Assembly (NCBI GenBank): GCA_964440045.1
Contig: CAYTQR010000004.1
Span: 1 to 32,084, forward strand
DNA: 32,084 nt
Reading direction: 5' to 3'
DNA from: an uncultured Planctomycetaceae bacterium
Lineage (GTDB): Bacteria > Planctomycetota > Phycisphaerae > Sedimentisphaerales > UBA12454
Part shown: positions 1-15,108 of the stretch, piece after piece
Numbering within the stretch: position 1 is the stretch's first letter
How the letters are laid out: each line of letters starts with the position of its first letter
The notes under the pieces: generated by a model
The model's input: the letters and a program-made list of their open reading frames with translations, nothing else
Database searches by the model: none
Told to the model about the DNA's origin: nothing
Position numbers and translations under genes: made by a program

Positions 1-277
<277 letters not shown>

Positions 278-448: not shown

Positions 449-557
449 TCCTGGTGACCATACCAGCGGGGAAACGCCTGATCCCATTCCGAACTCAGAA
501 GCTAAGCTCGCTGGGCCGATGGTAGTCTTTCGAGGCGAGAGTAGGTTATCGCCAGGA
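449..557 (+). rRNA. rrf: 5S rRNA (short, ~109 nt)
   Basis: TCCTGGTGAC...GATCCCATTCCGAACTCAGAAGCTAAG...GCCGATGGTAGT...GAGAGTAGGTTATCGCCAGGA. Terminal stem TCCTGG/CCAGGA. Confidence 0.97.
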
Positions 558-561
558 TTAT

Positions 562-600
562 GAGCCTCGGTACTGAAAAGTGCCGAGGCTCTCCTTTTTT
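562..600 (+). terminator. Rho-independent terminator of the rRNA operon
   Basis: GAGCCTCGGTACT (562-574) / AGTGCCGAGGCTC (579-591) hairpin followed by TCCTTTTTT. Confidence 0.9.
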
Positions 601-602
601 AT

Positions 603-704
603 AGCCACAGAGTTCACAGAGGACACAGAGATACATAAAAATCCTAAGCACTAAACCCTAAATCCTAAACAAATCCTAATTATCAAAACTCAAATGCTCA
701 AAAC
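603..704 (+). repeat. Short tandem repeats: 3x CACAGAG at 9-nt period (603-630), then a degenerate AAATCCT heptamer run (639-704)
   Basis: agccacagagttcacagaggacacagag and aaatcctaagcactaaaccctaaatcctaaacaaatcct are seen directly. Confidence 0.7.
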
Positions 705-762
705 ATGTTATCGCCGGTGCTTTTGAAATATAATCCATTCATTAACAATGCTTAGTTTTTCA

Positions 763-790
763 TTGATTTTTAGCAATTGTCGGATATAAT
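763..790 (+). promoter_or_regulatory. Putative sigma70 promoter of the 837..2222 gene
   Basis: TTGATT (763-768), 16-bp spacer, perfect TATAAT (785-790). Purine-rich GAGAAGG precedes the ATG at 837. Confidence 0.55.
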
Positions 791-836
791 CTATAAGCAC
801 ATTATCATGCTCTATAAAATAGAGAAGGCAAATAGA

Positions 837-2222
837 ATGATAAGATTTGAATGCAGTTCCTGTGGCTATACCAAAGACATAGCCGACAAATATGCTAACA
901 AAAAAGTCCTCTGTCCCAAATGTAATGCCCCTAATCTTGTTCCAAATCAAAAATCCCCACAGGCGGAAAAAGCCAATAATATCATTAAAGTTCGCTGTCC
1001 ACAGTGCAATAAAAAGATTGGCGTAACGGCCGAGTATGCGGGACGCCGAGTAAGATGCGCCAACTGTAAAAGCCCTATTACAATTCCAATCCCTTCACAA
1101 CCACAAGACAGCACAGACAAAGTACAGTCTAAATCTGAAGCAAAGCAAGCTGACAAATCAACGCAACAGGCACCTGATAACATGTTCGCTGACACACAAG
1201 ATTTACTTAACATGGAACAGCAAGCGAAGACCGTCTATATGCCGGAATTGGCAAAGCCGTCGACGTCTGTTAAAGCGGAAAGAAAAACAGAAGGCAGTAT
1301 AAGCAGCGAAGCTGAGCCGGAAACAAAAAAGCGTAAAGAAAAACCTTCAAAAAAGAATATGTTAGTCGGTGCTGTAATAGCTGGGTGCGTGATAGTTGCT
1401 GCAGCTATCATGTTAATCGGATTTCCAAAAACCCTTAAAAAAGAAAAAGAATCCGCCATTAATCAAACTCAAATCACTGATGCTAATAACTTTGCATTAA
1501 AATGCCTCGGTATACTGGCAAAAGGCGAGGTAAATGATGTTTCTTTACTGCTTACGTCAGAACTGCAAGCCAAAGACGGCAAGACGATATTGAAGGAACT
1601 CTCTGAACAAATAAACAAAACCTGGACGGACAATTACACGGCAACAGAATCCCATGCTCAAGAAACCACTCAAGGCAATATCTACTGGTTTAACTATAAT
1701 CCTGAACTTAAGGAGTCACAGAACATTAGAGTATTTGTCCGGGATGACGTAAGCACTAAAGTGCTCGAGGGGATAGTATTGGCCGATTCTGAAAGTAATA
1801 GCTGGCCAATATTTTTGCAATCTGAACTCTGCATTAAGGCTCAGACAGAGGCTGTTTTCACTGTCGCGGCTCCATTTCTTAAATGGGGAATGAAGCTTTT
1901 TGCCATACTGTTAGTATTGAGTATCTTAACGGTTGTATCAATGGCAATTGTATTTTACAAAGCAGATGAGCCGGCGTGGGCAGTTATCATACCAATTTAC
2001 AACTGCTGGGTACTGGCAAGGGTTGGGGGCAGACCCGGCATATTAGGTCTTGCCTTATTTTTTGTGTCATTTGTTCCTTTGGTCGGACCAATTATTTCTA
2101 TAGCCTTAATGATTTATATCCATATTGGGGTAGCTCATAACTTCGGCCGGGGCATACTATTCGGACTCGGACTTTGTTTTCTATCCTTTATCTTCTGGCC
2201 CATCCTAGCCTTCTCAGCCTAA
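837..2222 (+). CDS. Membrane protein with two N-terminal zinc ribbons, a central TM helix and a C-terminal DUF5684-like multi-TM domain
   Basis: CSSC..CPKC and CPQC..CANC pairs, low-complexity linker, TM MLVGAVIAGCVIVAAAIMLIG, C-terminal KADEPAWAVIIPIYN...HNFGRGILFGLGL..FWPILAF. Start placed at ATG 837 (MIRFEC) because of the RBS; the ORF track starts at 777. Confidence 0.8.
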   Translation: MIRFECSSCGYTKDIADKYANKKVLCPKCNAPNLVPNQKSPQAEKANNIIKVRCPQCNKKIGVTAEYAGRRVRCANCKSPITIPIPSQPQDSTDKVQSKSEAKQADKSTQQAPDNMFADTQDLLNMEQQAKTVYMPELAKPSTSVKAERKTEGSISSEAEPETKKRKEKPSKKNMLVGAVIAGCVIVAAAIMLIGFPKTLKKEKESAINQTQITDANNFALKCLGILAKGEVNDVSLLLTSELQAKDGKTILKELSEQINKTWTDNYTATESHAQETTQGNIYWFNYNPELKESQNIRVFVRDDVSTKVLEGIVLADSESNSWPIFLQSELCIKAQTEAVFTVAAPFLKWGMKLFAILLVLSILTVVSMAIVFYKADEPAWAVIIPIYNCWVLARVGGRPGILGLALFFVSFVPLVGPIISIALMIYIHIGVAHNFGRGILFGLGLCFLSFIFWPILAFSA

Positions 2223-2258
2223 GCCTTGTATCTGAAAAAAGCTCCTCGCTAAAAATAC

Positions 2259-2345
2259 GTTATCGCCCCTTCTTCGCCCTGCGGGCTACGCAGGGCAGGC
2301 AGGATTATGAGCCCTGATACTTTACGATATCGGGGCTCTCCTTTT
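2259..2345 (+). repeat. Diverged duplicate of the 5S rRNA 3' end plus terminator, split by a ~33-nt REP-like hairpin
   Basis: GTTATCGC(C) 2259-2267 plus CAGGATTATGAGCC 2300-2313 matches 545-566. GGCTCTCCTTTT 2334-2345 matches 587-598. Confidence 0.85.
2309..2345 (+). terminator. Rho-independent terminator (paralog of the rRNA operon terminator)
   Basis: GAGCCCTGATA (2309-2319) / TATCGGGGCTC (2328-2338) stem followed by TCCTTTT. Confidence 0.75.
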
Positions 2346-2376
2346 GGGCTGAATTCCGCATGAAGACAGAAAAGTA

Positions 2377-2405
2377 TTGATGTGTAAAGGAATTATCATT
2401 ATATT
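2377..2405 (+). promoter_or_regulatory. Putative sigma70 promoter of the 2432..3673 gene
   Basis: TTGATG (2377-2382), 17-bp spacer, TATATT (2400-2405). RBS AAGGAG at 2421-2426. Confidence 0.5.
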
Positions 2406-2431
2406 CATATAAAAATTCAGAAGGAGATAAA

Positions 2432-3673
2432 ATGAAAATACTACATTGTATTTCAATTTTATGTGTTTTAACGTGCAGTTGCCATGCTGATTCGGAGCCG
2501 ATATTCGATGTAATGCTCGTACCATCCATAGCTGATAAGGAGCTGGATTTTTGGTATTATACAGCATCGGCTCATGGCCCTCATATCCCAAGCGTAAAGA
2601 AAGTCTATCAGGAACAGATGTTTATGCTCCTGATGTTTTCAAGGACATATCCGGTCGAATCACAAACTGAGGTGGATATAACCTATGATTTAAAAGTCAC
2701 ATCTCCGCAAAAAACGATTACACTGGAAGAGAAGAATATACCTTATTATAAAGGTAAGCACATATCTAAAGTATTTCATCCAAGTAATGTAATAGATGTA
2801 GGATTTGACAAAAAAGAATCTTTTGGGACGTATCATATCGAAGCTGTATATTATGAAAATGTTTCCAAACGAAGCTTTATCGCGACAGCTGAAATAGAAC
2901 TTGTTCCGTTCGAGCAGCCTAAATCTTTTGCTTCTAAGGAAGAATATGGCAAATGGGTAATGGAATATCATCTCAGGCCAGATCCTGTAAGGTCGTTTGC
3001 AGCCATATTATATTATATACAGCCGGACCCAAATTGGATCGAAGAAAACTACGCTACACTAGCATTTCACCGCCGGGTCTTTATGGACAATCCCTTTTTA
3101 TGGGAATATTACACTCAACTATATCAAACTGTTTCAGAAAACGACAAGAAAAAGATGCTGTTAGCTGCAGCAGTAGTTCCATCATCAAAAGAAAAGGAAA
3201 AGATGTTTGTTGAAAAAATTGAACCGGCCATGTTGTCATCTTACAAAGAATTTTCCAAAATTCGTATTCTAAATACAGATAAGGAGCTAACTACCGGGGT
3301 TCAGCTTGATATTTTGTGGGTAGAGTTTTTTGCCTCGGGGAAATATCAGCCTATCAAAAGACTGGTCAGTTCTTTAGCTCTGCAAAAACATATGGGTACT
3401 ATAGACAAAGTAAAAAATAACGAAATTAAAGAATTAACCAAAGAGGTTGAAGAAAAGGTCATGCTGGAAGCCGTCTACCGGTCTGCTATTTGGTCACTAA
3501 CTTCAAACTGCCTAAGCGACCGTCTGGTTCATCAGTATTGTCAGACAATATATGAACATGAATCTTTAAGCCCAGAAGTCAAGAAATCGCTTGCCACTGT
3601 TCTTGCTGTAGTAGAGGAAAAACAGCAGGAAGAAAAGAAAGAAAAAACACTTAAAAAGATTAAAATAAATTGA
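2432..3673 (+). CDS. Hypothetical exported protein (signal peptide)
   Basis: 413-aa ORF with a strong RBS and N-terminal MKILHCISILCVLTCSCHA signal-like segment. The C-terminal half looks helical (LDILWVEFFASG). No family recognised. Confidence 0.75.
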   Translation: MKILHCISILCVLTCSCHADSEPIFDVMLVPSIADKELDFWYYTASAHGPHIPSVKKVYQEQMFMLLMFSRTYPVESQTEVDITYDLKVTSPQKTITLEEKNIPYYKGKHISKVFHPSNVIDVGFDKKESFGTYHIEAVYYENVSKRSFIATAEIELVPFEQPKSFASKEEYGKWVMEYHLRPDPVRSFAAILYYIQPDPNWIEENYATLAFHRRVFMDNPFLWEYYTQLYQTVSENDKKKMLLAAAVVPSSKEKEKMFVEKIEPAMLSSYKEFSKIRILNTDKELTTGVQLDILWVEFFASGKYQPIKRLVSSLALQKHMGTIDKVKNNEIKELTKEVEEKVMLEAVYRSAIWSLTSNCLSDRLVHQYCQTIYEHESLSPEVKKSLATVLAVVEEKQQEEKKEKTLKKIKIN

Positions 3674-3683
3674 CGTTATCGCC

Positions 3684-4005
3684 CTACCTCTGACCCCGCC
3701 AAGGTGTTGGCGGGGCTAACCAAACCTGCCGTGAAACGGCAGCGGTGCGGGACAGGTGGCAGTTGCCTATTTAGTGCGGGACAGGCTGTTGCGGCTCTGT
3801 TTTTTATTTGTGTTATTATCCCTGCGCTATCGCTTGGGCTCTGTAGCGTCGCCGTCCGCCTTCGTTAAAACTTCGTCGAAACAAGCCGGCGACGGCTAAA
3901 CAACCCTGCCATCACAAAAAATAAACCCCGACCTCATGGGTCGGGGCTAAACAATGAAAACACTCGGTAAAACCACGACAGAACGGGACAGGCCGGGGGC
4001 TAAAT
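3684..4005. repeat. Cluster of GC-rich REP-like palindromes between convergent genes
   Basis: Hairpins at 3694-3715, 3726-3742, 3847-3894 and 3926-3946. GTGCGGGACAGG at 3745 and 3774, CGGGACAGG at 3984. GGCTAA follows the stems at 3714, 3894, 3945 and 3998. Confidence 0.75.
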
Positions 4006-4020
4006 ATTCTGTGGAATACC

Positions 4021-5157
4021 TTATTTTATAGCAATATTACAATAGTAATCTATCAATAATTTTGTGCAAATTTTTCTATCGAAGTAGTTTTCGATATCCA
4101 GCCGGGCGTTTTCGGCAAGTTCAATTCGCAGTTGCGGCTGCGTATATAATAGATTAAAGGCCTGGGCAAACTCGTCCGCTACTTTAGGTTCGGCGAGGAG
4201 GCCTGTTTGATTATGTTTTATGAGTGAATTTATGCCGGGGATATTCGAGGCTACGACAGCTCTTTTTGCGGCTGCTGCTTCAAGCAGTGAATAAGGCATT
4301 CCTTCATGCCAGCTGGGCAAAGTAACGATATTACAGGCTGCGTAGTATTGATGTATATCTGTTACATAACCGAGCGGGAAGATTGTCGCCGGGCAGGAGC
4401 CTTTTGATTTAACAATGTCGGTCAAATCACAGCCAGCGGTTAACAGGACCTTTTCAGCGGCCGGCTGCATTTGGCAGAAAATTTCCCAGGCCTTTAGCAG
4501 TGTATTAAATCCTTTACGTATGAAGGGTCTGCCAACATAAAGAACTACAAAGGCGTTTTGGGGGATATTAAGCTTTTGGCGTTGAGTGTTTTGTGCTGTA
4601 TCGCTGAATTTTTCGATTTTAAACTCATCAAGGTCAATCCCGCAAATTGAGCCGGAGCCAAGGCATAAGACTTTTTTTTCGGAGACGATTTTGTCTTCAA
4701 TCATTTTTTTTCTGATTGTTGGCGCAACCGTTAAAACATTCGTGGCCAGGAGGCAGTTTAAAAATTCGAGCAACCAAAGGCCCCATTTTTTCACTCCCCT
4801 ATGGCCGAGATATGGAGCGCCGTGGTTATGATAAATTCTAATCGGCACTTTGGCCAATAATGCGGAAAGCAACGGTATAAAAGAGGCACGGCTCTGGTGA
4901 GAGTGAATTGCCGAGGGTTTTACGGATTTTAACTGCAGAGTGAGGTTGAAGATATTCCTCACGGCTGCGAAAGGATTGGGGCTGATATCAAATTTTGCAA
5001 ACTGTTTGGGGCAGGTAATCGCGGAGGTGAAATCGGCCAATTGGCTTCTATTTTCGAGCCATAGTTCGGCACCGAAGCCTGCATTATTCAAAGCGTTTAC
5101 AAGCGGCTCAATGAAACGTTTGGCACTTACCGGATAATGGATAAAATGAATTATCAA
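4021..5157 (-). CDS. Glycosyltransferase family 4
   Basis: YVGR...RKG and LPSWHEGMPYSLLEAAA (EX7E) motifs. Confidence 0.9.
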   Translation of the reverse strand: MIIHFIHYPVSAKRFIEPLVNALNNAGFGAELWLENRSQLADFTSAITCPKQFAKFDISPNPFAAVRNIFNLTLQLKSVKPSAIHSHQSRASFIPLLSALLAKVPIRIYHNHGAPYLGHRGVKKWGLWLLEFLNCLLATNVLTVAPTIRKKMIEDKIVSEKKVLCLGSGSICGIDLDEFKIEKFSDTAQNTQRQKLNIPQNAFVVLYVGRPFIRKGFNTLLKAWEIFCQMQPAAEKVLLTAGCDLTDIVKSKGSCPATIFPLGYVTDIHQYYAACNIVTLPSWHEGMPYSLLEAAAAKRAVVASNIPGINSLIKHNQTGLLAEPKVADEFAQAFNLLYTQPQLRIELAENARLDIENYFDRKICTKLLIDYYCNIAIK

Positions 5158-5160
5158 TTT

Positions 5161-5922
5161 TTATACCTCGTTGCCATGCCGGCAACGGCTAAACAAGATT
5201 TTAAACAGAGAAACAATAAAACCGGCAAATAATCGAGGTGATTTTTGGATAAGGGTTTCTTTGAAAAGCTGGCTGGAATTTATAATAAAACATTCACGAG
5301 AGCCTTTGGCCTGGTCTGAATGCACCCTGTAATCAAGCAGGACATTCGGCAGGTTTGCAAATTTTATGTTTTTGTCCCTGCTTAATCTGAGCCATAAATC
5401 AACGTCCTGGCAGAATTTGTTTCCCTGATAACCACCGGCGTCGAGAATTGTTTTTCGTCTGAACATCACGGCCGGGTGACAGAAGCAAAATCGGAAAGGC
5501 AGCTTTCGGCGGATTTGTTTATCGGTTTGCGGCATTTGGACAATTTTATTTTTCTCTCCAAAAAACTCAAATGCCGAACCAAGTATATGGACATCCGGAT
5601 GAGAATCAAGGAATTCTACCTGGCGGGCAAGTCTTTGCGGTCTTGCGATATCGTCTGCATCCATCCGCGCTATATATTCGGCTTCTGTTCGGGCCATACC
5701 GAAATTGAGATTAAAGGATAATTGTTTAATAGGCGTTTGAAACGCTCTTATTCGCGTATCATCATAGGATTGTATGATTCCCCATGTTTTGTCCGTTGAA
5801 GCATTTTCGACGATGATAAACTCAAAATCCGTATAAGTTTGCGCGAGAATACTATCAATTGCCTCTTTTATATACCTTTGGCCGTTGTGGGCACATAAAA
5901 GCACAGCCACCTTAGCACTCAT
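5161..5922 (-). CDS. Glycosyltransferase family 2
   Basis: AIDSILAQTYTDFEFIIVENASTD, ARMDADD, HPAVMFRR, QDVDLW. Confidence 0.92.
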   Translation of the reverse strand: MSAKVAVLLCAHNGQRYIKEAIDSILAQTYTDFEFIIVENASTDKTWGIIQSYDDTRIRAFQTPIKQLSFNLNFGMARTEAEYIARMDADDIARPQRLARQVEFLDSHPDVHILGSAFEFFGEKNKIVQMPQTDKQIRRKLPFRFCFCHPAVMFRRKTILDAGGYQGNKFCQDVDLWLRLSRDKNIKFANLPNVLLDYRVHSDQAKGSRECFIINSSQLFKETLIQKSPRLFAGFIVSLFKILFSRCRHGNEV

Positions 5923-7054
5923 TTTTTACTCTCTCCAGCAATTTGGAATATTTATCAATAACACATTCGAGTGAATATTTATTTTTAATAGTTTCAATGG
6001 CTGAGTTGGAAATCGGGTCGGGCTGATTACTTTTGGCTTTTTCAATAGCCTCAAAAATACTGTCCGAATCGGTGTTTTTGGCGAGATAGCCGTTGACGCC
6101 GTCTGATATTACTTCGTTTATTCCAGTTACATCGGTGCCAACACATATAAGTCCGCAGGCCATAGCTTCAAGCAGACTTTTTGGAAGCGACTCGTGCAAT
6201 GACGGCAGAACAAAAAATCTGTATCTATTCATTATCTGCGGCAAAAGATTATTGGCTATCGTGCCCTTAAAGGTAAGTTTGGCACCGGTTTGCTGAGCAT
6301 AATGTTTAATGTCCTGCGTCAAAGTCCCGGAGCCGTATATATCAAGCTGCATATCGGCTTTCGCTGCGGCGGTTGTGAGATTAAATAAATTTTTCTCTTT
6401 GCTTATCCTGCCGACATAAAGTAATCTGTCCGGATATTTTTCGACTGAACTGTCAGGCTTGAATAAATTTATATCAACGAAGTTGGGTATAATAAAAACA
6501 TTTTTTTCTGCAACAGAGAATCTGTCTTTAATAAATTCGGCCTGGCTTTGCGTACTTACTACTGCAAAATCGGCATTTTCATAAGCAAAAACTTCAGCTT
6601 TTCTGATAAAGGTTTTTTTTAATACTGAAGTTTTTTGTGAATCTTTGAGTCGAGACCAAGTATAACCTGTTCGGACAATTAGAGGTTTTTTTGTGATTTT
6701 TTTTGTTAAAACAGCCGGCCAGCTTCCGGACATTTGATTAGTCATTAAGGCATCGACACTTTGCAGAAAATCTTTCATTAATCCGGGTATCAGCAGACTG
6801 TAGAGATATTTCCCGCAGGGTATGTTGAAAGACGTTGGGATTTGTATTACTTTGATATCATTATGCAGTTTACCCGCTTGCTTTAATTGTTCTGCAATTT
6901 TGTTATCTTCGGCGCCGTAAGTAAACCATAATACCTTTGATACTATTTCTTTTCGCAGAAGCTCTTCGTAAAGCAGTTTTTCCCTGTCAAACAGGCCGGT
7001 ATCGAGCCATTGTTCAAGAGAGAGACCGAAAGTAAAAAAAAGTGCGAGTTTCAT
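5912..7054 (-). CDS. Glycosyltransferase family 4
   Basis: YVGRISKEKN and LPSLHESLPKSLLEAMACG. ATG at 7054 overlaps the upstream stop. Confidence 0.9.
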   Translation of the reverse strand: MKLALFFTFGLSLEQWLDTGLFDREKLLYEELLRKEIVSKVLWFTYGAEDNKIAEQLKQAGKLHNDIKVIQIPTSFNIPCGKYLYSLLIPGLMKDFLQSVDALMTNQMSGSWPAVLTKKITKKPLIVRTGYTWSRLKDSQKTSVLKKTFIRKAEVFAYENADFAVVSTQSQAEFIKDRFSVAEKNVFIIPNFVDINLFKPDSSVEKYPDRLLYVGRISKEKNLFNLTTAAAKADMQLDIYGSGTLTQDIKHYAQQTGAKLTFKGTIANNLLPQIMNRYRFFVLPSLHESLPKSLLEAMACGLICVGTDVTGINEVISDGVNGYLAKNTDSDSIFEAIEKAKSNQPDPISNSAIETIKNKYSLECVIDKYSKLLERVKNEC

Positions 7055-7737
7055 AAGCACTGACAGAGGGCGTAGATTTCGCCAAATTCGATTTCCATCC
7101 GAACCAGCTTTATTTGTGCCTGGGCAAGTTCCGATACAAACTCATCATTGGTATATTCGATGCAGTGTGTCCGATCGAGACGGTATTCGATTCCAAGATT
7201 TTTTTTATAAACAGTAATCCAATCCCTTTGAAGTGTGGGAACTCGAATCAAAAATATCCTTTTTGTTTTTTCCGTCCAGTTGACGTTATGGACCAGCTTT
7301 TTCAACAAGCCTACTCTGTTTTCTATATGTTCGAGAAGATTCGACATTACAATACAATCTATGCCTCTTTCGGTTTTACAGTCGAAAGAATTAGCATCTG
7401 CACAGATATACTCAATATTGTCAGCGGGATTATTTTTGCGAGCTTTCCGTATTAAATCAGGATTTATATCTATGGCATAAACGAACGAGGCTCTTTGTGC
7501 AATTTTTCCTGCGAGTATCCCCGTATTGCATCCGATATCCATTATACACCAGCCCGGTTTAATGTTATCACAGAACCACTTTTCATAGTTGATTATAGAA
7601 TGTTTTGGATGAATGCCGTTGTCCAGTGCTATTGCAAACCGGCTAATCCACCTGTAACAAGCTGAATGGAGTGAAAGACAAGGTTTTAAAAATAACTTTG
7701 CAGTTATTTTATTTATTATTAGAGATTTCAGGAACAT
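7051..7737 (-). CDS. Class I SAM-dependent methyltransferase
   Basis: MDIGCNTG motif I, YAIDINP, SNLLEHI, IRVP. Confidence 0.85.
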   Translation of the reverse strand: MFLKSLIINKITAKLFLKPCLSLHSACYRWISRFAIALDNGIHPKHSIINYEKWFCDNIKPGWCIMDIGCNTGILAGKIAQRASFVYAIDINPDLIRKARKNNPADNIEYICADANSFDCKTERGIDCIVMSNLLEHIENRVGLLKKLVHNVNWTEKTKRIFLIRVPTLQRDWITVYKKNLGIEYRLDRTHCIEYTNDEFVSELAQAQIKLVRMEIEFGEIYALCQCL

Positions 7738-8726
7738 TGAATTTTATTGACTGTCTTCCAGAATAATATTTCTGTTATCAGACGCAGATAGGCAATTTTG
7801 CCAAACTTTTTACGCGGCGATTTATCACATACCTTCTGCATAAAATCATAATATGCCTTGCCGACTTCTTCAATAGATGGGACTTTTATAGAAGAAGTAT
7901 AATCAGAATAATCATTTACGATTTTTTCAAGCAAAAGCGGTATGTCGGACGGTTTATCAAAAAGCTGACCGCCTTTTGCGACTATTTCCGGGTTGCTGCT
8001 TGAATTTGGCGCGATGGCAGGCAGGCCGCAATGCAACGCCTCGAGGAGCAGGTTTGAACAAGCTTCTATAGGCGAGGCAAAAATAAAAATATCGTCTTGC
8101 TTAAACTTTTCTGCGAGTCGGCTGCTGTTCAATGGCAGCAGATGCTGTATGTTTTTAAACTTGATGGGACTGTTTCCGATGAAAGTCATTTGATATTTTG
8201 AAAAATCCAGATTTTCATCGAGCCATTTATAAGTTTTAAAACCTTTATTCCAATTCGCCGACCAGCTCGCCGCAATTAATTTGATTTTTCGCGTCACTGA
8301 AAACTGCAACCTGCCATTCCTGTTGAAAACTTCTTCATCTGTCGCATTGTGTATAACAGTTTCGAAAGATTTTTCGGATAGTTTCAATTCATGGTTTTTC
8401 TGCTGCGACCAGTTAGACTGAAATATAGTTGCATCGGCAAGTAATTTATTAGCTGAAAATACCATATCATCACGTTTATCCGAAGGGCTATTGTAAATCT
8501 TCATCGGCCCGTCTATTCGATGAACAAATACCTTATCCGGAAATTTGAGTTTAAGTTTTGCTACTTCTGTAATATGATGATGGCTATTAAAAAGGATAAC
8601 ATCTGCCAGGGAACAATCCTCTTCATAAGTGCCAATGGATTGAAGATAATTTTTCAGGTATTTGAGGAACTGATTGCCACCGCCAGCAGGAGAAGAAACA
8701 GATTTGAATAAAATACAAATCTTCAT
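7728..8726 (-). CDS. Glycosyltransferase, GT4-like
   Basis: GGGNQF N-terminal loop, HRIDGP, WNKG, ASPIEACSNLLLEALHCGLP. Confidence 0.85.
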   Translation of the reverse strand: MKICILFKSVSSPAGGGNQFLKYLKNYLQSIGTYEEDCSLADVILFNSHHHITEVAKLKLKFPDKVFVHRIDGPMKIYNSPSDKRDDMVFSANKLLADATIFQSNWSQQKNHELKLSEKSFETVIHNATDEEVFNRNGRLQFSVTRKIKLIAASWSANWNKGFKTYKWLDENLDFSKYQMTFIGNSPIKFKNIQHLLPLNSSRLAEKFKQDDIFIFASPIEACSNLLLEALHCGLPAIAPNSSSNPEIVAKGGQLFDKPSDIPLLLEKIVNDYSDYTSSIKVPSIEEVGKAYYDFMQKVCDKSPRKKFGKIAYLRLITEILFWKTVNKIQCS

Positions 8727-9706: not shown

Positions 9707-10801
9707 TCAGTCTCTTTCAGAATCAACAAACCCATTGAAAAAATCCCGCCACAATGGGATATGAGCGGTATAAGTATTTACTTTTGCAGTTTCAGCGGCA
9801 TTTACAATTATTTTTCTGCGAAGGTGTTCATCGCTCAAAACTTTTTTGCACGAACACGCAAGTGCTTCAGTATCTTCAACGTCCACTATCATGCCATTTT
9901 GTTCATTCTGAACCAAATCCACAGCCTGCCCGACACGAGTCGTAACCAGAGGCACACCGCAAGCCATTGATTCGAGCACTGATTTCGGTCCCCCTTCCTG
10001 CCTCGATGTAACCATATACAAATCAAGGCAATGATATAAGCTGCCTATTTTTGAATAGTCCTCAAGAAACACATGCTTATAGGGTACGGATAATTCTTCC
10101 AAACCTTTTTTGACATATCCCCTGGCAGGACCGGAAAGAATAACAAAAATCTCAGGTACAGAATTTTTTAATATTGATATGGTATTTAAAAATACATCAG
10201 GCCCTTTTACCATTTTAGGGTTAAGTCCCTCTCCCCAGCCGTCGCCGTCTTTTTGAAACGACCCAATCACAACGGCACTTTGCGGAATTTTCAATGTTTT
10301 TCTTGCCTGGCTTTTTAATTCAACCGTCTGGATAGAAAAATACTCGCCCTTAATCGCTATTGGTATCAGAAAAACTTTTTCAGGTTCAATACCGCTGTCC
10401 AGTATCAAATTTCTCATATAAGAATTAGAAGTTTGTATTCGTGTTACTTTATGATGATATTTTCTGAGATTGTTAAAGCAGACTTCAAACAGCTTTTTCC
10501 CAGAGCCGGGATAACCATGATAATAAGGAAAGGCTATACGGCATTTCGGCAATAGATACCTGCGAGGACGTCTCAAAAAATAAACGGACGGATAAAATAT
10601 CGCCTGTCTTGGAAAACCAACCGGTATTGGCCCTGATATGCGCCGTTTTATACCCAGTTTTTTTAATACCTCGGCCAGAGACTCAATTTCGCCGCTTGTA
10701 ACCCATTTGACCCCTTCCGTAACAAACAAGACATCTTTGTACGGTCTTGCAGAAAGACTTGCAAGAATATTTCTCAAAGTGGTAGGTTTTAGATTTACCA
10801 A
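9707..10801 (-). CDS. Glycosyltransferase family 4
   Basis: GSFQKDG..KGPD and TSRQEGGPKSVLESMACGVP. Confidence 0.88.
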   Translation of the reverse strand: MVNLKPTTLRNILASLSARPYKDVLFVTEGVKWVTSGEIESLAEVLKKLGIKRRISGPIPVGFPRQAIFYPSVYFLRRPRRYLLPKCRIAFPYYHGYPGSGKKLFEVCFNNLRKYHHKVTRIQTSNSYMRNLILDSGIEPEKVFLIPIAIKGEYFSIQTVELKSQARKTLKIPQSAVVIGSFQKDGDGWGEGLNPKMVKGPDVFLNTISILKNSVPEIFVILSGPARGYVKKGLEELSVPYKHVFLEDYSKIGSLYHCLDLYMVTSRQEGGPKSVLESMACGVPLVTTRVGQAVDLVQNEQNGMIVDVEDTEALACSCKKVLSDEHLRRKIIVNAAETAKVNTYTAHIPLWRDFFNGFVDSERD

Positions 10802-13272: not shown

Positions 13273-15108
13273 TCACACCTGCACATTCTGAAGTTTGAGA
13301 TAATTTCTAAACGTTTCACTTTCAGCCAACAACTGCTTGAAGGATCCTTTTGCCTTTATTTGGCCATCCTCAATAAAGTAAAGGATATCCGCATCTCTAA
13401 CAGAAGACAAACGATGAGAAATATTAATAATTGTTTTGCCTTCATTCTTTAACCGGCTTATTGTGCCAGCGATTAGTTTTTCGCTTTCGAGGTCAATGGA
13501 GCTTGTCGCCTCATCAAGGACAATAACTTGAGGATTTCTTGACAATGCTCTGGCAATGGCGATTCTTTGTCTTTGCCCACCTGAAACAGAATAACCCAGC
13601 GAACCAACCCGGGTCTCATAACCAGCAGACAGTTTATTTATAAATTCATCGGCATTGGCCATTTTAGCTGATTTGACAACATCCTCCATAGATATATTAT
13701 CAACTCCATAAGCAATATTAAATTTTATACTTTCATTGAACAATGCCGTACTTTGGTCGACTAAGCCGACAAGGTCTCTCCACGAATAAATGTCATAATC
13801 TTTTAAGTTGTCCGCATCAAGAAATATATTACCACTGCTTGGAGTAAATAATCTTATGATAAGGCCAACTACAGTGCTTTTTCCTGAGCCCGATGGGCCG
13901 ATAAATGCCACATGCTGGCCAGCATTGATTTCAAATGAAACATCCTTGAGGACAGGGGTGCCCTGCTCGTATTCAAAATTAACTTTATCAAATATTATTT
14001 TGTGGGGAGGATTCTTAAGCTTAATACTGCCATTTTTCTGTTCGTATTTGCTGAACTTGCTCAATGAGCTTTTTATCAGCAATACACTTCCATATACTTT
14101 ACTTATGGTCGAGAATGCGGTACTTATACTTTGCGATATCGGTGCAAGTCTGACAAAAACTATGACAAAAAGCAGAATCCATAGCGGCTTCGCATCGGCA
14201 TCTTTATGCAAATACAGGCCTATAAATATCACTACCAGAGGCAGTATTATTCCTATTACACGGTTCAAGGGACCTATAAGTGAATTGCATTTCAGCATTT
14301 GCCATTCTTTTTCGTAGACATTATCTATGCTCTGTTTAAACCGCAAGGTTTCAAAATCGAATGTCTTGAAAAGATGAATAATTTTTATCGAATTCAACAC
14401 TTCCACTATAATTGAGCCGAGAAATGCACGTGACTGTGCTCTGCTAAAACTCGTGTGCCTGATAAATTTGATGAGCTTGTAAACAGGTATTAAAGTAACT
14501 ACCAATAAAATAAGCACTATGCACGTTAACCTGGCTGATATCATCGAAAGGAAAAAGATATATACCCCTCCCATAACTACTGCTGTTATAAGCTGCAGCG
14601 CTCCCCTATAAAGAAATCTTATATTCCCGCATTCAACAACAATAAGATTTTGAAGATAACCTATCTTGTATTGAAACACCTTCGTTATGTCCGCAAATAT
14701 AATGTTGCGAAACAACTTTTCCTTCCAATGATTGCTTAGCTTCAGAGAAATCGATTCTTCCGTCATTCGCTTTATTACTGTCAAAACTGCACTAACCAAA
14801 CCGCAAATACTCAGAAAAAGCCCAATCATAATAAACTGCCTGTATCCCTGCCATTGGTTAATCCAATCCTGAAATGGTTTTAAGGCCTGAACAGGAATTG
14901 TTATGCCGCCTTTAACCCCTCCAACCACTTTTTGCAATATTGGAATCAGCATAGAGATACTGATGCTTTCAAATAAAACCGTCAGAATCCCCAAAAAAAC
15001 CAGAAACCAGACCTTAAGCAGCGGATGCGGCGTGCCTTCAGAAAATACCTCCACAACATTTCTTGCAACAACAAGTTCTTCTTTAAATTTCGAAATAATT
15101 TTTTTCAT
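13273..15108 (-). CDS. ABC exporter, fused permease/ATPase (MsbA/PglK-like glycan flippase)
   Basis: N-terminal TM helices, Walker A GPSGSGKST, signature VSGGQRQR, Walker B VLDEATS, ISHRL. Confidence 0.92.
   Translation of the reverse strand: MKKIISKFKEELVVARNVVEVFSEGTPHPLLKVWFLVFLGILTVLFESISISMLIPILQKVVGGVKGGITIPVQALKPFQDWINQWQGYRQFIMIGLFLSICGLVSAVLTVIKRMTEESISLKLSNHWKEKLFRNIIFADITKVFQYKIGYLQNLIVVECGNIRFLYRGALQLITAVVMGGVYIFFLSMISARLTCIVLILLVVTLIPVYKLIKFIRHTSFSRAQSRAFLGSIIVEVLNSIKIIHLFKTFDFETLRFKQSIDNVYEKEWQMLKCNSLIGPLNRVIGIILPLVVIFIGLYLHKDADAKPLWILLFVIVFVRLAPISQSISTAFSTISKVYGSVLLIKSSLSKFSKYEQKNGSIKLKNPPHKIIFDKVNFEYEQGTPVLKDVSFEINAGQHVAFIGPSGSGKSTVVGLIIRLFTPSSGNIFLDADNLKDYDIYSWRDLVGLVDQSTALFNESIKFNIAYGVDNISMEDVVKSAKMANADEFINKLSAGYETRVGSLGYSVSGGQRQRIAIARALSRNPQVIVLDEATSSIDLESEKLIAGTISRLKNEGKTIINISHRLSSVRDADILYFIEDGQIKAKGSFKQLLAESETFRNYLKLQNVQV

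Follow-up and report, generated by a model that had tools for sequence, protein, structure and literature searches.

Head-to-tail gene units bordered by copies of the 5S rRNA tail behind rrf in Sedimentisphaerales

Background

Insertion of genomic islands and prophages into the 3' ends of tRNA and transfer-messenger RNA (tmRNA) genes is a textbook observation. In staphylococci, staphylococcal cassette chromosome (SCC) elements are found where rlmH ends on its 3' side; in Prochlorococcus, tRNA genes harbor tycheposon arrays. In this report, we describe an array of units behind the 5S rRNA gene (rrf) of an uncultured planctomycete of the order Sedimentisphaerales, a group of sediment bacteria. 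The DNA analyzed, hereafter the window, is a stretch of 32,084 nt (contig CAYTQR010000004.1 of assembly GCA_964440045.1), and the repeats and the two genes in question lie at 545-3683. A direct repeat of the 3' part of the target gene at the distal border, with the gene itself intact, is present in the window, and the corresponding repeats in relatives measure 9-104 nt. A full-text literature search, with most subscription journals outside its coverage, returned no report of 5S rRNA as an integration, cassette or accessory-gene site.

Our main finding is that units stand head to tail behind rrf, each border carrying a copy of the 5S tail while the functional 5S gene remains intact. The minimal sequence common to the borders is the 9-mer GTNATYGCC; between close relatives, entire units are present or absent, and the breakpoints fall in the repeat; and the same cargo genes are found in different orders and with different neighbors. 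The repeats of the window very probably belong to a real rrf-anchored array of this kind. Below, genomes are designated by G numbers, loci or contigs by L numbers, and contigs of a named genome by C numbers; G000 is the source genome of the window, with an assembly of 1.80 Mb in 172 contigs that is 94% complete.

Results and discussion

Four copies of the 5S tail border two genes in the window

An exact count finds the 9-mer GTTATCGCC, part of the 5S tail, four times in the window, always on the + strand, at 545, 707, 2259 and 3675, the positions given by the initial annotation of this DNA. As also proposed there, the copies bracket two genes, and the last copy, at 3675, starts one base past the stop codon of gene 2 (3671-3673). 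Shuffled windows held 0.19 copies on average, and none of 100 reached four. Over both strands of the 1.80-Mb assembly, the 9-mer is present in 30 copies compared to 11 expected from base composition, a background well above the rate of once per 260 kb assumed earlier. With this background corrected to about 13 copies per strand elsewhere, three extra same-strand copies within 3.1 kb still have a Poisson probability of about 2e-6, and the claim that they are improbable by chance holds for this word. The genome-wide count likewise gives no support to membership of an abundant family of repetitive extragenic palindromes (REP), which had been raised as a possible refutation: the 26 other copies in G000 have no flanking repeat in common, and the other G000 copies (C140, C68) of the dispersed repeat adjoining copy 2 stop short of the 9-mer.

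At copy 3, the repeat exceeds 9 nt. Positions 2301-2345 match 554-598, that is, the last bases of the 5S gene and the terminator behind it, and are split from the core by a 33-nt insert. The stems of the two terminator hairpins differ by compensatory changes, and the 13-mer AGGATTATGAGCC and the 12-mer GGCTCTCCTTTT each occur twice in the genome, at these two places only. At copies 2 and 4, the 9-mer is the only sequence in common with the 5S gene. Separately assembled contigs from three runs span every copy without differences (481-1239, 662-2413, 1821-2729 and 2781-4048), which speaks against an artefact of assembly; these are Logan contigs of depth 3-6, and runs X1-X4 are possibly the window's own source. 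A further run from a different study (X5) covers only parts of gene 2 and 4113-4254, gene 1 being uncovered there, which does not indicate its absence.

Tail-bounded arrays in the family and the order

The 5S genes of 18 relatives in the same family end in GTCATCGCC, GTTATTGCC, GTGATTGCC or GTGATCGCC, and the genome's own variant is repeated downstream on the + strand in 5 of 19 family loci (G000, G018, G021, G017 and G036). Across relatives, the 5S 3' fragments are found 0.1-11 kb behind rrf, where they delimit units with toxin-antitoxin, restriction-modification and hypothetical genes. When eight loci were scanned with Rfam, a single full 5S gene was detected in seven and two in G017; the extra tail copies in these loci are 5S 3' fragments of 19-104 nt, five of which are 100% identical to the resident 5S.

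Two family members illustrate the arrangement. Behind the 5S gene of G021 come terminator A, a 5S piece with a hairpin, GTCATCGCCAGGATTAT with terminator B, an IS200-like gene and the same site again; about 3.3 kb is missing there in its close relative G020. A 20-mer of G021, GCTCCAATCCGGTCATCGCC, which precedes and includes the core, was found with at most one mismatch behind rrf only, in G021 and G017, among 26 family genomes. The second full 5S gene of G017 has its tail split after GTCATCGCC by a 35-nt hairpin, followed by AGGATTATGAGG, as in copy 3 of the window; this succession of core, hairpin and AGGA also recurs at many sites of other relatives. The full 5S genes of G017 (contig C10, locus L013) are at 10439-10546 and 13675-13782, 3.2 kb apart, and a BsoBI-type restriction-modification pair lies between them.

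In the order as a whole, the tail pattern gave a match in 180 of 401 genomes. Among the matches listed, at least seven genomes have two or three same-strand tail copies (0.4-6.6 kb) on one contig, which in one case is 7.5 Mb long. Arrays with three to five sites are known, among them those in G042 (at 496, 867, 2243 and 11662), in G137 (at 1161, 3956, 8381 and 12177) and in L071, which has five sites.

A conserved border site with a covarying hairpin

Many borders are built alike: a 5S piece ending in GGCGAG is followed by TCC, a stem-loop and GGA, then by TAAAATCCG and the core GTNATYGCC. Two continuations follow the core: in one, AGGA(A/T)TTAT and a terminator; in the other, a second hairpin module, which ends in GGCAGGC and precedes AGGA. 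The smallest part common to these sites is the 9-mer, and its earlier description as a shared core is borne out. Conservation of the left arm GGATAAAATCCG, which is not derived from 5S, and of the covarying hairpin extends over three families of the order, and 5S similarity restarts at an identical nucleotide in about 60 sites.

A gapped pattern of the site identified 14 sites in 13 of 401 genomes. Nine of them lie 80 nt to 11 kb behind an identified 5S gene, with which they share contig and strand, and the remaining ones are on short contigs or at contig starts. A 16-mer of the site occurs at 23 places in 216 genomes, compared to 3 for the reversed control. The 21-mer GGATAAAATCCGGTNATYGCC matched 65 metagenome stretches, none in viral_contigs, and 19 stretches in a collection of one genome per species covering 185,579 species; 14 of these 19 are titled Planctomycetota, 'Pirellulales' or Sedimentisphaerales, and the other five are single off-lineage matches. 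From 64 metagenome matches, L082 and L128 were excluded as unrelated, being inside a cytochrome b gene, as were L122, L119, L103 and L134, by a by-eye judgement of their flanks. A full 5S gene lies upstream on the same strand in 23 of 64 metagenome loci and partial 5S pieces in 12 more, while 7 of the 15 loci with at least 3 kb of upstream sequence have no 5S within reach. Wherever they can be placed, sites are behind rrf and not at dispersed targets. Close to an array site on the metagenome contig L077, a PD-(D/E)XK gene and a '23S rRNA intervening sequence protein' family gene (4401-4769) adjoin a V-type ATPase operon.

Pairing within the hairpin is kept through sequence change: 84% of cells are paired versus 37-53% when the alignment is slid, and double changes number 31 versus 14 in shuffles (reached in 0 of 500), figures that relatedness inflates. 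At the fourth pair, CG, GC and UA are all seen. No Rfam family was found at the hairpin site in the loci scanned. Compensatory changes mark this structured 3' site in relatives; no such structure was seen at the three downstream copies of the window. The initial annotation described the borders as lacking attC hairpins, which is correct for the worn copies of the window but not for the better-kept sites of relatives.

The core follows the resident 5S gene

In 36 loci with a resident 5S gene, 46 of 50 downstream sites carry the resident's exact GTNATYGC, compared to a mean of 29 and a maximum of 39 when residents were permuted in 5000 trials; these loci include some organisms sampled twice. Where the resident 5S is not of the majority type, 9 of 12 sites match it. 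The cores of relatives are GTC, GTG or GTA variants, and G000 adds three of three sites matching its own T variant. In helix I of 5S rRNA, the first variable core base shows no covariation in the 5' strand, and at the second, G7 pairs with C or U. The variable bases being unconstrained by helix I, 5S function offers no explanation for the match to the resident gene, so that a mechanism must exist that either copies or requires core identity. We infer that the match would follow if the overlap regions had to be identical for recombination.

Whole units are gained, lost and shuffled

Comparison of close relatives gives access to individual events. In G305, 1.09 kb containing one 309-aa gene lies between 25-nt repeats, and the flank past the second repeat is the flank found directly behind the 5S gene in G125, of the same genus. 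Three other pairs, each within one genus, differ by 0.49 kb between 36-nt repeats (G349 and G149), by 0.74 kb (G300 and G360) and by about 0.75 kb (G167 and G326). L116 and L071 are 99.9% identical, except that L116 has 792 extra nt corresponding to two units; at the L071 junction, the left flank of one L116 site passes into the right flank of the other inside a stretch of 24 identical nt, at the end of which is the core. L073 and L133, which are 98.7% identical, differ by the replacement of one segment, and in L073 the same cassette has a minimal end (...AATAG, core, AGGATTATGAGG) that resembles the bare copies of G000.

Shuffling is illustrated by three cassettes. Cassette C is alone behind the 5S gene in G305 and between cassettes B and D in G290, and in L116, B is immediately followed by D; cassette B was found on six contigs. 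The initial annotation had predicted variable gene content with breakpoints at the core, and in relatives whole units are indeed present or absent at the repeat; the window itself has no counterpart with an empty site.

Cargo of the arrays and search for an enzyme

The arrays contain 93 distinct open reading frames (ORFs) of at least 70 aa, 75 of which are co-oriented with the array. They include DUF4160/DUF2442, HepT/MNT and BrnT/BrnA pairs, BsoBI and Eco57I-like restriction-modification genes, DNA methylases, CHAT, HNH and SIR2-like proteins, metallo-beta-lactamase-fold proteins, retropepsin-like proteases and very large LTD/CotH proteins. Among the commonest cassettes is the gene of a small aspartyl protease, retropepsin-like and about 120 aa long (Pfam gag-asp_proteas), which occurs in L032, L052, L090, L094, L116, L121 and L124.

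None of the 93 ORFs encodes a tyrosine recombinase (PF00589), a serine recombinase or a DDE transposase, in agreement with the initial annotation, which reported no integrase in the array; one, in the G021 array, encodes a Y1 transposase (Y1_Tnp, 114.6 bits). The genomes of five array-bearing relatives each encode 3-9 PF00589 proteins, all of them on contigs other than those of the arrays, and all five have Y1_Tnp matches, as does G000, with three weak ones (27-32 bits). The PF00589 proteins of G000 score 345.3 bits with TIGR02224 and 333 bits with TIGR02225, and 136.6 and 134.2 bits with the integron-integrase model, the cut-off of which is 265. A dif-like candidate is located on C25 of G000, at about 1446-1473, according to a motif match.

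Two candidate systems were considered. The integron reading was dropped: GTNATYGCC is outside the integron core consensus, and no intI is present. The Xer reading is unlikely, XerC and XerD being weak candidates because the arms of the array sites differ from the dif-like candidate of G000.

Layout of the window and its two genes

The features of the window are listed in Table 1, in which promoter-like and terminator-like sites are consensus matches only.

Table 1. Features of the window around the 5S-anchored array
Feature	Position	Strand	Remarks
23S rRNA 3' end, truncated by contig start	1..278	+	Rfam RF02541, 125.5 bits, model 2742-2925
5S rRNA gene (rrf), full length, array anchor	450..557	+	Rfam RF00001, 80.8 bits, model 1-120
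Core copy 1, GTTATCGCC, 3' strand of 5S helix I	545..553	+	
rrn terminator (type A): AGGA (last 5S bases), TTATGAGCC, hairpin, GGCTCTCCTTTT	554..598	+	Stem 562-591
Unit 1 filler: two dispersed intergenic repeat modules, 9-mer outside them	599..706	+	
Core copy 2; left flank GCTCAAAACAT, weak likeness to order-wide left arm	707..715	+	
Gene 1, 461 aa	837..2222	+	ATG 837, stop 2222; promoter-like site 763-790
GCTAAAAATAC, putative degenerate counterpart of left arm GGATAAAATCCG	2248..2258	+	By comparison
Core copy 3, behind gene 1	2259..2267	+	
33-nt G+C-rich hairpin module between core and AGGA	2268..2300	+	
Displaced 5S end and terminator: second AGGATTATGAGCC, hairpin, GGCTCTCCTTTT	2301..2345	+	Stem 2309-2338
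Gene 2, 413 aa	2432..3673	+	Promoter-like hexamers 2377-2405 and 2404-2433
Core copy 4, one base past gene 2 stop	3675..3683	+	
REP-like G+C-rich hairpin modules behind copy 4	3684..4010	+	G000 copies on C15, C43, C123, C21

The protein encoded by gene 1 has zinc-ribbon repeats and a DUF5684 membrane domain (Pfam DUF5684, 7.9e-12); its PADLOC match is weak (E 3.4e-4). Full-length homologues with 37-39% identity are present in 3 of 25 family genomes, none of them at rrf. Gene 2 encodes a signal-peptide protein that matched no Pfam family and nothing in PADLOC, and has one homologue in the same 25 genomes (G002, 56% identity). The attribution of a promoter to each gene stands at the level of consensus matches (10 of 12 positions in front of gene 1, 9 of 12 at the sites in front of gene 2) and goes no further. 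An exact 30-mer of the G000 5S end and terminator had no match in metagenome_contigs.

Several neighboring features deserve mention. At the 23S 3' end, 184 model positions are spread over 278 nt, with an extra A/T-rich stretch of about 95 nt (window 61-181) enclosed by a 13-bp inverted repeat, CCCGCACCTACTT ... AAGTAGGTGCGGG, similar to an intervening sequence or an expansion hairpin. The modules at 595-705 are of a CACAGAG type and a AAATCCTAA type; tens of copies are found in 40 of 40 relatives searched, and few in G000 (C2, C140 and C68). Behind copy 4, the segment 3684-4010 has 54% G+C versus 39% for the window, contigs of two runs have 9 letters in place of 3722-3885 (a strain variant), and the module at about 3760-3790 resembles the post-core module of contigs L091 and L109 and of G290. 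Further on, four glycosyltransferase genes and one methyltransferase gene (4021-8726, - strand) converge on the array; this cluster is present in none of the rrf-downstream loci of 18 relatives.

A possible mechanism

Units may be inserted and excised in circular form, through Campbell-type recombination inside the core, and the enzyme would be a conservative site-specific recombinase of the tyrosine type, encoded in trans. A well-kept site can be read as a core between imperfect inverted arms (ATAAAATCCGG / TNATYG / CCAGGATTTAT) with the conserved hairpin to its left; the six central bases would hold both variable positions, a layout resembling that of a tyrosine-recombinase core. New units would insert at the 5S copy and displace older ones downstream. 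The arm layout, the fixed point at which 5S resumes, the minimal sites of 9-16 nt and the conserved non-5S arm together favor a site-specific trans enzyme, about as far as an even balance. The complete statement, according to which 545-3683 represents three units, now worn, of a cassette system that has its anchor at the 5S 3' end and is run by a trans tyrosine-type recombinase, is in our opinion evenly poised. In G000, the arms appear degenerate (copies 2 and 4) or split by the hairpin module (copy 3), and since XerC and XerD are its only tyrosine recombinases, the array is probably a fossil and not active.

It is conceivable that the order possesses a general gene-capture platform, in which the 5S 3' end would play the part of attI, the 5S-derived hairpin site that of attC, and a trans recombinase would insert and excise promoter-carrying cassettes with genes for defense, toxin-antitoxin and surface functions. 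We propose this tentatively, as falling somewhat short of an even chance; the core identity that such a platform would require would explain why sites track their own 5S tail. The initial annotation's view of 5S rRNA as an att site collecting small units is partly sustained by the tail-bounded arrays of the window and its relatives, while no recombinase was found and homologous recombination is possible.

A number of observations weigh against an enzyme-driven array. Some concern the repeats of the window: in 59 regions of G000, one 9-mer or another reaches four or more same-strand copies within 3.2 kb, and although many of these are A/T-rich or true repeats, clustering of a 9-mer is insufficient by itself to support an array. 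This look-elsewhere control dilutes the bare statistic, so that the weight must rest on identity with the 5S tail, on position at unit borders and on the relatives. The conserved hairpin is missing from the G000 copies, and both arms are missing from copies 2 and 4. Others concern mobility in G000: no relative has the window's site empty, the same-genus G001 being non-syntenic with the window and without a 5S match in the piece examined, and no contig joint skips a unit among Logan contigs of depth 3-6, in which rare circles would be undetectable. The homologues of genes 1 and 2 in the 25 family genomes have neither core nor rrf nearby, and the expectation that they would be flanked by the same core finds no support. 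Among relatives, 14 of 19 family loci have no extra tail copy in 0.9-13.8 kb of downstream sequence, and relatives are in any case non-independent samples. Of cassette C, only the ORF part is common to G305 and G290, its flanks not being conserved, and plain and hairpin forms of the site are both found behind cassette B, a pattern consistent with frequent exchange of sites by homologous recombination. As to the enzyme, no recombinase was found on the array contigs of G021, G137, G042, G290 and G233, and the tyrosine recombinase expected next to a 5S-tail copy was seen neither there nor in the arrays; the PF00589 proteins of G000 number only two, XerC and XerD by score, and by eye the arms of the array sites are unlike its dif-like candidate.

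Alternative explanations

The most serious competitor, although we consider it unlikely, is a passive hot spot, in which duplicated leftovers of the 5S end would permit loss of units by slippage or RecA recombination and their gain by homologous recombination at the 5S tail, of the Campbell or double-crossover kind, with no dedicated recombinase. Homologous exchange between repeats is indeed the main rival, explaining the deletions and part of the shuffling, and we give it a similarly low probability. Repeats are often 25-104 nt long and some are 100% identical to the resident 5S; deletion between direct repeats of 24-100 nt needs no dedicated enzyme, another point against the enzymatic reading, and the L116/L071 junction falls within 24 identical nt. 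The left borders of the 5S fragments vary (positions 1, 28, 42, 49, 61, 66, 73 and 83-85), plain and hairpin sites are interchangeable behind one cassette, no recombinase resides inside or beside the arrays, and core identity with the resident 5S fits gene conversion. However, the minimal sites (G000 copies 2-4, G018 and L073) have 9-16 nt of 5S, which is too short for RecA-mediated insertion, 5S similarity restarts at one nucleotide in about 60 sites, and decay would not preserve the GGATAAAATCCG arm and the covarying hairpin in three families.

A second alternative, which we regard as improbable, is single-strand 'peel and paste' by a trans Y1 transposase (HUH, IS200/IS605 type): non-autonomous units, their hairpins subterminal, would insert 3' of ...AGTAG in the 5S gene, carrying their own 5S tail. 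One hairpin precedes the right junction by about 10 nt, and 9-21 nt separate the left junction from the next hairpin; a Y1_Tnp gene resides in the G021 array, and there are Y1_Tnp matches in G000 and in all five array genomes. This geometry argument depends, however, on general figures for IS608, a single one of the 93 array ORFs encodes a Y1 transposase, and sites are behind rrf only instead of dispersed. The match of the neutral core bases to the resident 5S would also be left without a reason.

It is very improbable that the site is an RNA-level element, that is, a 5S-tail mimic with hairpins acting as a 3'-end processing or stabilizing signal for mRNAs behind the rrn operon and kept by selection. 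The site is always at the 3' end of co-oriented genes, right before a terminator, its hairpin covaries, and on our reading the arms could pair around the core; but such a signal explains neither gain and loss at the level of units nor why the neutral core bases agree with the resident 5S, and no Rfam family is found there.

Slightly less probable still is target-site duplication by a DDE transposase that makes 9-bp duplications and inserts repeatedly into one 9-bp target in the 5S tail. It would copy the resident core automatically, the shortest repeats in G000 and G018 measure exactly 9 bp, and the two ends of a unit (AGGATTTAT... and ...ATAAAATCC) are imperfect inverted repeats of each other. 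On the left, however, the 'inverted repeat' is just the native 5S end with its flank; many repeats, at 25-104 nt, are far above 9 bp, no DDE transposase is present in the arrays, and no copies are seen at other targets.

Lastly, the view that the 9-mer recurs by chance or belongs to an abundant REP family, unrelated to 5S, is already largely refuted in spite of the 59 comparable regions and of the REP-like modules directly behind copy 4, since four copies occurred in none of 100 shuffles, the 26 other copies are outside repeats, the dispersed repeat at copy 2 ends before the 9-mer, the homology of copy 3 extends into the 5S end, and relatives show the same pattern with each genome's own tail variant.

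Significance

If a site-specific enzyme runs the arrays, integrons would have an independent counterpart, a second cassette platform, in a phylum that has been little studied and with a cargo enriched in toxin-antitoxin and restriction-modification genes. If homologous recombination alone is responsible, the arrays would show that species can exchange genes with a universally conserved RNA tail as the portable homology. As a simple sequence marker, the site allows variable genes beside rrn operons to be found in metagenomes, at places where assemblies usually break.

Comparison with known systems

Chromosomal integrons (IntI, attI, attC) are similar in the head-to-tail order of small units, most of them co-oriented (75 of 93 ORFs here), in a cargo rich in toxin-antitoxin and defense genes, in a structured site that closes each unit on its 3' side, in a single fixed entry point, and in one short core at every border with cassettes shuffled between genomes. 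Unlike them, the arrays have their entry at the 3' end of rrf and not at an attI beside intI, and no integron integrase adjoins them; the core is GTNATYGCC, different from the integron consensus; and the site is derived from 5S and comes with a terminator, while the genes of the window have promoter-like sites of their own.

Islands in tRNA and tmRNA genes share the duplication of the 3' part of a stable RNA gene at the far end, with the gene restored by element sequence, and the repeated cores left by tandem insertion; here, however, the target is 5S rRNA, and the units, of 0.1-9 kb, are without an integrase of their own. SCC elements and tycheposons likewise form composite tandem arrays at one conserved gene end, with borders that are repeats of the target end and with recombinase-less members presumed mobile in trans, but some of their members have known recombinases (Ccr, tycheposon integrases), compared to none among the 93 ORFs here.

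Integrative mobile elements exploiting Xer (IMEX) and Xer-dependent dif or pdif modules also do without a recombinase of their own, XerC and XerD being the only tyrosine recombinases of G000, and a reading of the site as two arms around 6 bp is possible; it resides, however, at rrf and not at dif, and its arms differ from the dif-like candidate of G000. With IS200/IS605 elements and their non-autonomous derivatives, the arrays have in common subterminal hairpins, strict orientation and the presence of Y1 genes, one of them within an array; they differ in their single target locus, long direct repeats and core matching the resident 5S. The array works like integrons, RNA-gene islands, SCC elements and tycheposons, and Xer modules, yet fails the defining tests of each.

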